64,000 nt of DNA from Promethearchaeota archaeon. GTDB lineage: Archaea; Asgardarchaeota; Thorarchaeia; Thorarchaeales; Thorarchaeaceae. The notes below the pieces were generated by a model that worked only from the letters and a program-made list of their open reading frames with translations, did no database searches and was not told the DNA's origin. Positions within the stretch are counted from its first letter, which is position 1. Each line of letters starts with the position of its first letter. The DNA is taken from NCBI GenBank assembly GCA_014728035.1, contig WJMJ01000096.1, positions 1-64,000 of the forward strand. The letters are read 5' to 3'. Shown here one piece after another: positions 414-20,432 of this stretch. Position numbers and translations under genes: made by a program.

Positions 414-1130
414 TCATTCTCCAAATCTCTTGATAAGCCAACTCCTAAACCAATCAGGCATAACCCAGCCCAACCATGCTGCAACATATGCTCCAGAAAT
501 TAGAAAGCCAGCTATCGTAAAAGCGACATAGAGTGACAATGTCGAAGCTTCGAAGATAGTGAGAATAAAGATAACAACATAAGAGAGGAAATATGTCACG
601 CCCCAAGAACCAACCAGCCAGAATTTTGCTTTTGTGGTTATTCGACTAGCCATTGGTGCAGTCTTGAAACAGCTATAACCCAATGGTACGAACACTAGTA
701 ATGTTAGGAGGAAGAGGAATAGATACACCTCTATCGGCGGGTCATAGAACTCTCCAGCGAGAGCAGTCAGCATAGTAGCATTACCTGCAAGAAATCCAAT
801 GGTAGGAATATACCATTTGTTACGTGGTTGAAATAGCCCTCCATAGAAATATGCCATAGGTACGAATGAGATTAGAAATGTCAAAGAGAATAGAAACGAC
901 ATAACAGGTACTAGGTCTGGAATAACGAAAACACGGAGAAACACCTCTGAAAATGTCGCTCCTATGAGACCTAAGGTTTGAAGTATGAAGGTCAATACCA
1001 ATGATGCAGTTAATGGGTCTTTATCTTGTCGCCATCGATTGAAAAGAACCATTGATGTCCAAATTGCTGCCACAATTGCGATATACGTTGACAGCATATC
1101 GATTGCAAATAGTTCAAAGATATTCTGCAT
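414..1130 (-). CDS. 7-transmembrane membrane protein of unknown function (putative receptor)
   Basis: 238 aa with seven hydrophobic segments and a C-terminal amphipathic PDWFRSWLIKRF tail. GGTGGAG SD-like motif upstream. No Lys in TM7. Confidence 0.75.
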   Translation of the reverse strand: MQNIFELFAIDMLSTYIAIVAAIWTSMVLFNRWRQDKDPLTASLVLTFILQTLGLIGATFSEVFLRVFVIPDLVPVMSFLFSLTFLISFVPMAYFYGGLFQPRNKWYIPTIGFLAGNATMLTALAGEFYDPPIEVYLFLFLLTLLVFVPLGYSCFKTAPMASRITTKAKFWLVGSWGVTYFLSYVVIFILTIFEASTLSLYVAFTIAGFLISGAYVAAWLGWVMPDWFRSWLIKRFGE

Positions 1131-1140
1131 TCACTCCACC

Positions 1141-18700: not shown

Positions 18701-20432
18701 GTCCCGCTGAAGCATTGAGAGAGCCAAAAGTTAATGCAGTGCTATTGACGGATCCATTTGTACCGGTAGTATTGTTTTCTAAATACCAAACTGTACCATT
18801 TGGAAATAAATAGGAAATCTCAACCGCACTATCAAGGGAGGGAGTTTCGGAGCTCGTTTCTATTCTTGCAGAAACACGTGTGAGATTTGTGCTTCTAAAA
18901 AGGCTTTCATTCATCCAGTTCGCATTAGAATAGATTTGAGTGTTGATTGTTCTTGCATAGTTAGGTGTATTACCTGATAACTTCCACCAACCAAGTCTTA
19001 TCAATAAAGTATCAGGAATAATAACAAGTCCGGGATATATTTGGCATTGACTAGTCACATCGGATAGAAAAGGATCTTGAATAGTGATATTTTCCCAATC
19101 AGTTGGAAGGGTAATTCTTAAACTGAGATTTTGATATTCTTCAAGTGAGCCCATATATGAGTAGGTTTCAACTACCGTACTACTTCCAAAATCAATAGAA
19201 TAATGGACACCATAAGATGACTCAGCTGTCGTCCAAGTAGTGTTTCCGAATTGGTGAATTTTTAGACGAGTTTCATAGTCAAAAGAAATGGATGAGTTAG
19301 AAGTAAGATTAACAGGAAGTATTTGTTGGTTCCAATAGCTGGTATTGATAACTGAAGAATAACCGACACCATTACTACCAATAACTGAACTAGAAGTGTT
19401 TTCAACATAGAACTTAAAATCTACTTCCTCAAACGAAGGCGCGGTCTGTCCAATTAGACTAATGTCGTCCAACAAAATAGAGATGTAAGCTGTATTCAGG
19501 AAACCATCTTCAATTGTGTCACCATCATAATCTAAGTCAGGGTCCAAATTCAATTCTTCGTCAATGTATAATCCAACCATAATTGTAGATGCATTTCCAA
19601 TTAATGGAAGTGATATTGGAATATCCCCAGATTCGTACCATACATCACGAGAATCGAGTGTTAGTAAACTTTGATTCCAAACAACTATATCATCAACAAA
19701 AACAGACACTGAACAATTACCACTCAATGCATCTCCACCAACACCATCGATTGGTCCTTGGAGATAAAGATATTTCAAACTAAGGATGAAATTTGACGTA
19801 TAAGGCAAATTTGGAAAACTTTGATTCCAGAGAATATAGGTACCAGCAGAATGAAGGAAGGTCGGAAAGTTAACATGAGTAGACTTACCTCTATTTTCTG
19901 CAGAAACATATCCATTAGAGTGATACTCAGCAATTTGTTTTTGTAATTCCTTTGTATCCGGGTTTGTGTCCTTGTGTTCTGGATACCAACCAAAAGGATA
20001 GTAATCAACACTATCATTAAGATTAGTATTAATACCCACAATACCGTCATCAAAAGTTCCATTTACTGCATAAGTTCGAGCAAGATTTGAAACGTTAACA
20101 GATGCTTCGCTGGCAATCCAGTTGTGAGTGATATCTAATTGATGATTGTACTGAAGATTTTGATAGATATCAGTTCTAGCGGAAACAATTCCAGATGTTG
20201 AGTAACCTATCTTTTCTAAACTACGAGAATCTAACACACCATCCCTGCTAGATTCACCTAGTTCATGTGTTTCAGAACTATCCAAGGGTTCGATACTTAT
20301 GTTTTTCAGATTGGGGTTTACAATTGCAGGATTGCAAAACATAGGTATAATCATGACAAATAGCGAGAACACTACTAGGATTTTACCCGAAATCCTCACG
20401 TGCTTTCTTGTTTGCATCCTCATATTCCCCAA
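15744..20432 (-). CDS. giant surface glycoprotein: Ig-like beta-sandwich repeats, single TM, cytoplasmic longin-like domain
   Basis: N-terminal signal/TM; many NxS/T sequons; repeats with G(N/D)GxY motifs; TM (IVGTGAAAAIGIIAVTFMAY) followed by RYKKQK; C-terminal IIGLVVLHKISGLPIYS...GAFITAITHFQSEF. Confidence 0.8.
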   Translation of the reverse strand: MGNMRMQTRKHVRISGKILVVFSLFVMIIPMFCNPAIVNPNLKNISIEPLDSSETHELGESSRDGVLDSRSLEKIGYSTSGIVSARTDIYQNLQYNHQLDITHNWIASEASVNVSNLARTYAVNGTFDDGIVGINTNLNDSVDYYPFGWYPEHKDTNPDTKELQKQIAEYHSNGYVSAENRGKSTHVNFPTFLHSAGTYILWNQSFPNLPYTSNFILSLKYLYLQGPIDGVGGDALSGNCSVSVFVDDIVVWNQSLLTLDSRDVWYESGDIPISLPLIGNASTIMVGLYIDEELNLDPDLDYDGDTIEDGFLNTAYISILLDDISLIGQTAPSFEEVDFKFYVENTSSSVIGSNGVGYSSVINTSYWNQQILPVNLTSNSSISFDYETRLKIHQFGNTTWTTAESSYGVHYSIDFGSSTVVETYSYMGSLEEYQNLSLRITLPTDWENITIQDPFLSDVTSQCQIYPGLVIIPDTLLIRLGWWKLSGNTPNYARTINTQIYSNANWMNESLFRSTNLTRVSARIETSSETPSLDSAVEISYLFPNGTVWYLENNTTGTNGSVNSTALTFGSLNASAGQWSVQVFWENGSEIAYDEISFELHHQSLLIAVNEYIETEVGEVITNFVRFIDAENGEHIMTSASIVANWSGSEIVFSPNDVRKSWEADFNTSLISPGNNTVIVNASVDYYDNASCSFIIRTVYTNNLLLLSEDTAQIGLYSNHTAIFHYEDRFGNPIDGATLDISYSGSSGGVVLGQVVPLGNGNYQVNITSQLAGSYSIRFHATKSFYEFAEDTLFLFVSSIETKLSILNGSAAAVSYGQTYEVFIEYVNSTDYGLDNATVEIASITPMDGVDYGDSVAHGNGIYSFSISSTSSGTYSIVIQANLTNHITQLETFSLTFTNESMVLSLDLESSIQIINENMEINFRLENSTDLGVEEATITCINLPESVPVFNFLEIGDGNYSITMAINTTGSFQLVFVATVPNHVDASTSLTITVVKVPTRLYNPVGTSNIITVFGSVYNFSVFYERTDYNQNITSGNIQLSGLNLEGLEWNITKIDEEYILSFSSEEPGLWSVIVTISKENYQSATLELAIEIRPISSELQIFSPSSALTINRDNTFQFSYLRENSTNGIDDATISISGTGSDWVEWDYIGDGLYNITIRADEIGSYRVQFVFSKLGYETQQGTFNFEVDEIPLEIVMDSIVWQQGQPLTIELQLIESDTGSPSTGAYVEYRLTAEGISPITGVLEESEPGTYSTTITPPWPGESGYEMSITVDQENAELTGAFSSSITALPDIAGEIMRTATIVGTGAAAAIGIIAVTFMAYRYKKQKDHERFVRAMTIKNRFDDANNIIGLVVLHKISGLPIYSRAIKGGFEEGMIGAFITAITHFQSEFEGNERDTLFQIIPISDILRTVPTEQLMCAFITINPASKEQEQRMVEYARRVGELMDDTVSVETSQVHDEKTIATLDYIFDDVMDGFLLGEYHFKDKEEYPEKYECIVEGVNNLESDSFQLVELARSMASCGVRVADTYLLIMDAYEIGLLEQIGRSELNSLDLSSELDLG

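Follow-up and report, generated by a model that had tools for sequence, protein, structure and literature searches.

Within the first 20 kb (positions 414-20,432) of a 64-kb stretch of a Promethearchaeota archaeon genome (assembly GCA_014728035.1, contig WJMJ01000096.1, here C65; the 64 kb are called the window) lie genes for a Rab-like small GTPase, two seven-transmembrane (7TM) proteins, two membrane-anchored longin-like domains, a Bet3-fold domain and two copies of one Cys2-His2 domain, named ZnF here. The most useful result of their analysis is that the unnamed ZnF domain is found repeatedly beside one group of Rab-like GTPases. ZnF-mediated pairing of this group with variable partners is the conserved core, and in the window the pair forms, with a 7TM gene, a triad that is a conserved operon present in five further assemblies. 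For the region as a whole we lean, by a small measure, towards a loose co-location of separately inherited pieces, namely ZnF adaptor modules and separate longin genes, and not one conserved system. An original prediction from the sequence had drawn up the 20 kb as a parts list running from receptors through longin and Bet3 domains to a Rab-like switch; each listed part was verified at its position and the domain calls were right.

The GTPase-ZnF-7TM Triad

The triad genes are on the reverse strand: the GTPase gene (1396-1947; 183 amino acids, aa) comes first, followed after 3 nt by the gene for ZnF83, a stand-alone ZnF protein of 83 aa (1141-1392), and after a further 10 nt by that for a 7TM membrane protein of 238 aa (414-1130). 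The same unit, with unrelated flanks, is found in genomes G008, G013, G016, and GCA_900174565.1, and a copy in G014 is cut at the contig end.

The GTPase matches Pfam Ras (PF00071) with 116.1 bits (gathering cut-off 21.6; E 1.6e-33), and its best 60 PDB sequence matches are all Rab/Ypt/Sec4 proteins, with Rab2B at the top (3.9e-30). Its G3 motif, DAGGE, has glutamate where the catalytic glutamine of the canonical DxxGQ is expected, and its G4 motif is AKSD instead of NKxD; both are kept in five triad orthologues. Therefore, the GTPase probably needs a partner for hydrolysis or exchange. The protein ends in EIPINKV and has no C-terminal cysteine prenylation motif; absence of this tail has been reported for Asgard Rab-like proteins (PMC10933270).

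The genome encodes 36 GTPases above the Pfam Ras threshold. In a tree of 46 GTPase domains (IQ-TREE), the triad GTPase is placed in the region that holds all ZnF-adjacent GTPases, which have a DxGG G3 motif in common. ZnF-adjacent GTPases are clustered on this tree, with 3 label changes versus 11.5 after shuffling (0 of 500 shuffles gave as few). Two other proteins of this genome (C37:133951-134793 and C45:135955-137823) combine longin-like and Ras-like GTPase domains in one chain.

Seven hydrophobic helices can be read from the sequence of the 238-aa protein, and its ESM Atlas model superposes on the membrane modules of 7TMR-DISM proteins and 7TM histidine kinases (TM-score 0.63-0.69 over ~200 residues). 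There is no Pfam match to this protein (PF07695 and PF16927 were sought; HisKA_7TM gave just a weak feature hit), and no kinase, roadblock, or DUF742 match in Pfam for the triad.

The ZnF Domain and Its Partners

ZnF83 and residues ~21-96 of the protein encoded at 12455-13177 are the same domain in the family alignment, in which C11, C14, H41, H44, and D51 are invariant; the domain is predicted to bind zinc and to contact the neighboring GTPase. An exhaustive profile search returned 692 representative clusters at E ≤1e-3, and the domain is found in 38 of 41 related genomes at 1-10 copies each, with eight genes in this genome. It has no match in Pfam, NCBIfam, PADLOC, or PDB; against PDB the profile gives just weak matches, to classical zinc fingers and ribosomal zinc ribbons (best E 0.027), and the ESM Atlas neighbors are unnamed Asgard clusters. 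A literature search found no paper on the ZnF domain or on GTPase-ZnF triads.

Half of the eight ZnF genes directly follow GTPase genes (on contigs C65, C125 twice, and C151). Those four GTPases are, bar one exception, the ones nearest to the window's GTPase, and a fifth ZnF gene lies 3 kb from the exception. Among the 30 best ZnF loci of other genomes, 11 have an adjacent Ras-like gene, two of them as GTPase-ZnF-V4R triads, and in at least seven genera a conserved Rab-like gene is found at a distance of ~2.8-3 kb from a short ZnF orthologue of 72 aa. The third partner of the GTPase-ZnF pairs varies: it is a V4R protein at C125 (twice) and in G001 and G020, a longin at G013:C119, an ICMT-like membrane enzyme at C151, and the 7TM protein in the window.

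Two of these loci have features of their own. The stretch C125:15363-19982, where these families are packed most densely in the genome, contains two tandem paralogous operons, each with genes for a GTPase, a ZnF protein with a C-terminal winged helix, and a V4R protein; the winged helix matches HTH_47 and DUF742 at ~1e-3 (DUF742 E 8.6e-4, sub-threshold), and the V4R genes match Pfam V4R at ~1e-4 and TRAPP at 0.012. At C151:78925-80990, the gene after those for a GTPase and a 307-aa ZnF protein encodes a membrane methyltransferase from the PEMT/ICMT family (ICMT E 4.4e-6). In eukaryotes ICMT methylates prenylated GTPase tails; the C151 GTPase has no cysteine tail despite its ICMT-like neighbor gene.

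Among 149 representatives, the ZnF domain occurs alone (many members consist of little else, at 65-85 aa), on the N-terminal side of a 200-aa domain, or fused to V4R, V4R-like, or longin-like domains. Fusions to canonical V4R number four and those to a V4R-like domain five; the ZnF is C-terminal to a longin-like domain in two detected cases, with 22 more of the same layout. In a set of proteins of ~190-215 aa (P0084, P0088, P0099, P0113, P0140, and others; L068:1087-1686), the C-terminal ZnF follows a domain of ~130 aa with weak longin-type matches (SRP receptor SRX, E 0.019; AP-2 sigma, 0.5); the hhalign probability is 5%, so this is a lead only.

A functional link among the families is supported by the position of ZnF genes next to GTPase genes, by the ZnF-V4R and ZnF-longin fusions, and by the longin-V4R and longin-GTPase fusions. 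A more specific idea is tentative: the ZnF domain might be an Asgard-specific adaptor that couples one Rab-like GTPase group, whose members in the window's branch are without the usual catalytic glutamine, to interchangeable 7TM, Bet3/V4R-fold, or longin partners in a modular archaeal form of G-protein signaling.

The Permease and ZnF-Bet3-Fold Gene Pair

The second ZnF copy of the window is encoded by 12455-13177 (forward strand; likely start 12515, giving 220 aa), directly after a gene for an APC-family amino-acid permease (11101-12417, forward strand; Pfam AA_permease_2 7e-21). The ZnF-Bet3-fold protein has 23 homologues of 207-241 aa, all unnamed. In its AlphaFold2 (AF2) model (24 sequences; predicted local distance difference test score, pLDDT, 79.6), the C-terminal domain (residues 90-220) has the two-layer α/β fold of V4R/Bet3 proteins. 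The best structural match is TRAPPC6 (2bjn_B; Z 9.2, root-mean-square deviation, rmsd, 3.2, 113 residues aligned), followed by PoxR (5fru; 9.0), with the V4R sensor domains of PoxR, MopR, and DmpR at Z 8.3-9.0, Bet3 at 8.0, H-NOX at ~7, and Thor-TRAPPC3 (7yh3) at 6.8; in Foldseek the top match is Bet3 (1.1e-3). Sequence similarity is faint: there is no Pfam V4R or TRAPP match at E up to 10, and hhalign against the V4R paralogues of this genome is weak (E 0.0035, probability 9%). The zinc cysteines of V4R and Thor-TRAPPC3 are missing from the domain, whose single cysteine is non-conserved. Known ligands of the Bet3/V4R fold are small molecules in PoxR and palmitate in TRAPPC3.

The permease and ZnF-Bet3-fold genes are adjacent and co-directional in six genomes spanning five genera (G001, G009, G023, G014, G013, and G008, where the partner is broken). 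The genes upstream of the G025 homologue are not recognizable permeases, and the pairing is thus not claimed beyond one family. In G013 (C3:384-2387), an orthologue of the ZnF-Bet3-fold gene is followed 736 nt downstream by the gene for a GTPase of the ZnF-linked group, which groups (99/87) with the ZnF-adjacent GTPase of C151.

Membrane-Anchored Longin Proteins

The 7TM-longin protein (3040-4131, reverse strand; 363 aa) has a C-terminal cytoplasmic longin domain at residues ~231-361. Its AF2 model (12 homologues) has a pLDDT of 65.5 overall and of 70-89 across most of the C-terminal domain, and comprises seven long transmembrane (TM) helices followed by a β-β-α-β-β-β-α-α domain. In VIA-align this domain best matches TRAPPC4/Trs23 (Z 14.2, rmsd 2.8, 126 aligned), and then yeast Trs23 (13.0), the Sec22b longin (12.8), and VAMP7 (12.1); Fuzzy, Mon1, and Ccz1 score ~12, and roadblock ~11 over fewer residues. 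As modeled, the domain has a longin fold, with 115-126 residues covered against TRAPPC4, Sec22b, and VAMP7.

No Pfam longin family matches the 7TM-longin protein above threshold (best Intu_longin_1, E 0.013, 16.1 bits against a threshold of 23.7). A homologue search with the 363-aa protein was dominated by TM words, and the longin profile was built from paralogues of the same genome: 22 longin-like paralogues have recurrent sub-threshold Pfam longin matches, and the profile of these domains finds MON1 longin domain 1 in PDB (E 1.3e-3). The family has 43 members in this genome (jackhmmer), ten of which are 350-386 aa long and have the 7TM-longin layout, in which a hydrophobic N-terminal region (~230 aa) precedes the longin-like domain.

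The second protein, Ig-TM-longin (15744-20432, reverse strand; 1562 aa), is a single-pass membrane protein with a signal or anchor sequence, at least six Ig-like repeats, one TM segment, and a positively charged stop-transfer sequence. The ectodomain has weak Big_1 and Filamin matches, and the cytoplasmic domain (from residue ~1345) joins the longin-like family by a jackhmmer cross-hit (1.2e-14); a paralogue is encoded at C25:362522-368983. Eukaryotes have, to our knowledge, no known counterpart to this architecture of a longin domain anchored in the membrane. Two further loci of this genome combine the fold with V4R: at C25:219049-219942 a longin-like domain (residues 2-110) is fused to a canonical V4R domain (233-295), and at C167:6013-7782 a 7TM-longin paralogue has a stand-alone V4R gene immediately upstream, in the same orientation.

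Gene Density and Synteny

Genes of five families were labeled genome-wide (Ras 36, longin-like 43, roadblock 14, V4R 9, and ZnF 8) on crude open reading frame calls, two of the labeled families being defined from the window itself. The five labeled genes in 20 kb, where ~0.5 are expected, make this the second densest spot in the genome after C125. A maximum of at least five per 20 kb arises in 7.7% of 2000 permutations; when partners less than 300 nt apart are merged, the four units of the window are the genome maximum, and a maximum of at least four arises in 32% of permutations. With the GTPase-ZnF pair taken as given, the Poisson P of finding three further members within 18.5 kb is 0.011, which amounts to 0.38 expected cases over 36 anchors. 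Ras genes are truly associated with regulator families at the operon scale: a regulator-family gene is found within 1 kb of 28% of them, versus 4.3% of random genes. Clustering above the operon level does not exceed what chance gives.

Synteny separates the pieces. G001, of the same genus, keeps the TPR, 7TM-longin, MetRS, permease, ZnF-Bet3-fold, 581-aa, Ig-TM-longin, and DNA ligase genes, has unrelated genes at the place of the triad, and has no orthologue of the triad 7TM gene anywhere in its genome. In G008, G013, G014, and G016, the triad, ZnF-Bet3-fold, and 7TM-longin genes are on different contigs with unrelated flanks of at least 8 kb. For three of the 7TM-longin orthologues, the neighborhood contains no GTPase, ZnF, or V4R gene, and orthologues of Ig-TM-longin were found only in G001 and G009. 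Because the presence/absence patterns of the parts differ, the parts are not obligate partners.

Proposed Mechanism and Alternatives

In the favored explanation the region would contain two independent modules and separate longin genes. In the first module the ZnF domain would act as a zinc-stabilized adaptor, binding the cognate GTPase and linking it to a third partner that varies between loci; in the window this partner would be a 7TM sensor-type membrane protein, giving a receptor-adaptor-switch unit whose logic may be likened to the actinobacterial conservon/G-protein system. In the second, the gene after the permease gene encodes a fusion of the ZnF with a cysteine-less Bet3/V4R-fold domain; this protein is a candidate adaptor for ligand sensing and might recruit a GTPase of the ZnF group encoded elsewhere. 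The 7TM-longin and Ig-TM-longin proteins, two of the 43 paralogues, are probably membrane-anchored GTPase-binding platforms separate from both modules. Sensing is the putative role of these membrane proteins, and any guanine nucleotide exchange factor (GEF) or GTPase-activating protein (GAP) activity is likewise presumptive.

Several observations weigh against this explanation. The branch that joins all ZnF-linked GTPases is weakly supported (84/71) and also takes in five GTPases that are not directly ZnF-adjacent. No GTPase gene lies within 1.5 kb at 19 of the 30 best ZnF loci, many of which have short ZnF genes; neither of two ZnF-V4R fusions looked up has a GTPase neighbor; and the ZnF part of the AF2 model is moderately confident (pLDDT 70-79). 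The permease pairing is limited to one family, in which MetRS lies close by as well, and could thus be a remnant of synteny. Finally, a 10-kb island in G013 (C119:12336-22622) contains a co-orthologue of 7TM-longin with three Ras-like GTPase and two ZnF genes; counting the co-orthologue it has four longin-like genes, and a GTPase-ZnF-longin triad is found within it along with a ZnF-longin pair, so some clustering above the operon scale may be real.

That island bears on the reading of the original prediction, in which receptors (7TM, Ig-TM, and permease) signal through longins and Bet3-fold/ZnF adaptors to the single Rab-like GTPase in one integrated transmembrane network. All its parts are real, their density is high, and the islands at G013:C119 and C125 are denser still in the same families; however, once operons are merged the density is no more than chance would give (P 0.32), the block persists in G001 in the absence of the GTPase operon, other genomes have the modules on separate contigs, the parts differ in presence and absence, and housekeeping genes (MetRS and others) lie in between. 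The single network is thus not supported by statistics, synteny, or co-occurrence, and we consider it quite unlikely; what survives of the transmembrane-signaling idea is the fit of the membrane-anchored longins and the 7TM partner, while the 20-kb neighborhood does not hold together as one unit. The Bet3-fold and longin proteins might instead form a TRAPP-like exchange factor for the Rab-like GTPase, with a role in membrane remodeling or trafficking and not in sensing. The structural matches invite this, since TRAPPC4/Trs23 is the best match of the longin domain and TRAPPC6 and TRAPPC3 are the best of the Bet3-fold domain (in the 240-aa form of the protein); a longin-V4R fusion exists at C25 and in Heimdall (PMC10933270), and V4R adjoins a 7TM-longin paralogue at C167. 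The matches are not specific to TRAPP, however: the scores of PoxR-type sensor domains and H-NOX are on a par with those of TRAPP subunits, and roadblock, SNARE longins, and Mon1/Fuzzy score near Trs23. Moreover, the Bet3-fold and longin genes are non-adjacent here and in relatives, fusion of longins to 7TM or Ig-repeat ectodomains is typical of sensors, and the region has no trafficking machinery; a precursor of TRAPP is therefore unlikely.

The ZnF domain could also be a nucleic-acid-binding zinc finger, a transcription or RNA factor that is co-transcribed with GTPases as their output or for unrelated reasons, with the remaining clustering due to chance; the case would be plainest where a winged helix is attached. 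The winged helix of the C125 paralogues, the zinc fingers and ribosomal zinc ribbons that are the sole PDB profile matches, and the many small stand-alone members are in keeping with this. Against it, actinobacterial DUF742 proteins act on a GTPase and not on DNA, MfpC being a GEF (PMC11343762); the domains to which the ZnF is fused (V4R, longin, and a 200-aa helical domain) are modules that bind proteins or ligands; and the grouping of the adjacent GTPases on the tree points to a protein pair that co-evolves. We regard a nucleic-acid role as rather unlikely and prefer that of an adaptor in separately inherited modules.

Relation to Known Systems

The conservon of actinobacteria (CvnA-D; the Mfp operon in mycobacteria) encodes a sensor histidine kinase (CvnA), a roadblock protein (CvnB), a DUF742 protein (CvnC), and a Ras-like GTPase (CvnD) (PMC13343842; PMC11343762; PMC9769811); the DUF742 protein MfpC is a GEF in M. 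smegmatis (PMC11343762). Like the triad, with its putative sensor and adaptor, it is an operon that ties a small Ras-like GTPase to a sensor in the membrane and to small accessory proteins that act on the GTPase, and the ZnF paralogues of C125 share with it a winged helix and a weak DUF742 (CvnC/MfpC) match. The triad differs in that it lacks a histidine-kinase domain and a roadblock gene, ZnF83 has neither winged helix nor DUF742 similarity, the membrane partner is a bare 7TM protein, and the GTPase is Rab-like and not MglA-like. The 238-aa protein resembles bacterial 7TMR-DISM proteins and 7TM sensor kinases in its superposed membrane part but has no extracellular DISMED domain or fused output domain; its output would come in trans.

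The eukaryotic TRAPP core, a Rab GEF, is built from the Bet3-family subunits TRAPPC3/5/6 and the longin subunits TRAPPC1/2/4. Both folds are present here, in a genome with Rab-like GTPases. In contrast to TRAPP, the Bet3 fold is fused to a ZnF and the longins to membrane ectodomains or 7TM parts, the genes are non-adjacent, and Pfam TRAPP, V4R, and Longin similarity is below threshold.

In the same phylum, Thor-Rab and Thor-TRAPPC3 (PDB 7YH3/7YH2) have been solved, and longin-TRAPPC3 and longin/roadblock-GTPase fusions noted (Tran et al., 2024; PMC10933270). The same fold families and both kinds of fusion are found here, but the Bet3-fold domain of the window lacks the four zinc cysteines of Thor-TRAPPC3. 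In MK-D1, genes of GTPases generally do not share operons with those for roadblock, longin, or TRAPPC3 proteins (Tran et al., 2024; PMC10933270), whereas one GTPase group here is in operons through a ZnF domain that the same study does not describe. Liu et al. reported an Asgard operon for a LAMTOR1-like roadblock protein, a Rab-like GTPase, and a DENN protein, and NPRL2-like longin fusions to two-component domains (bioRxiv 10.1101/2020.10.19.343400). That operon is likewise a conserved Asgard unit of a Rab-like GTPase and candidate regulators, and the longins are again tied to prokaryote-type sensory modules; the partners here are, in contrast, ZnF, 7TM, and Bet3-fold proteins and not roadblock and DENN, and the longins are joined with membrane parts (7TM and Ig-repeat) and not with kinase or receiver domains.

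Setting and Other Genes of the Region

Contig C65 is part of a 4.33-Mb Thorarchaeota metagenome-assembled genome (completeness 97.9%, contamination 8.5%); the window is its first 64 kb, and the studied region begins 414 nt from the contig end. Between the triad and 7TM-longin, and outside the triad, is the gene for a small TPR protein (2263-2832, reverse strand; weak TPR matches), whose orthologue is kept in G001 without the triad. After 7TM-longin come an EamA transporter gene (forward strand), genes for a histidine phosphatase and a β-propeller protein, and MetRS (8712-10769), and beyond Ig-TM-longin are those for GTP cyclohydrolase, PTPS, and DNA ligase. Between the ZnF-Bet3-fold and Ig-TM-longin genes is that of a 581-aa protein (13473-15218, forward strand) with hydrophobic segments at the N-terminus and a long helical part; it has no family match and an orthologue only in G001, and for these reasons was not counted as part of the system. 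In the gap before the Ig-TM-longin gene, a GC-rich hairpin element (15252-15347) was marked in the original prediction.

PADLOC and NCBIfam gave no match for any of the unknown proteins of the region, and a defense-system reading was dropped on that ground. Outside the studied region, the window encodes a stand-alone 163-aa protein (38495-38986, forward strand) with a Cys-rich V4R-like C-terminus; it matches Pfam V4R at E 0.013 in a six-frame search and has no PDB sequence match.

Implications

Asgard genomes encode dozens of Rab-like GTPases, and more than 100 longin, roadblock, and TRAPPC3-like families. Matching these GTPases to their regulators from genome layout has been said not to be possible (PMC10933270); the ZnF-linked operons name specific candidate sets, in which a GTPase and a ZnF protein are joined by a 7TM, a V4R, or a longin protein. 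The region also carries a warning, as 20-kb "parts lists" can arise by chance in paralogue-rich Asgard genomes. The 7TM-longin proteins, ten of them in this genome, and the Ig-repeat receptors bear on whether eukaryotic-signature folds first served sensing at the plasma membrane. If the ZnF adaptor system is as proposed, Bet3-fold and longin proteins would have worked with Rab-like switches before eukaryotes, in sensing and not in trafficking.

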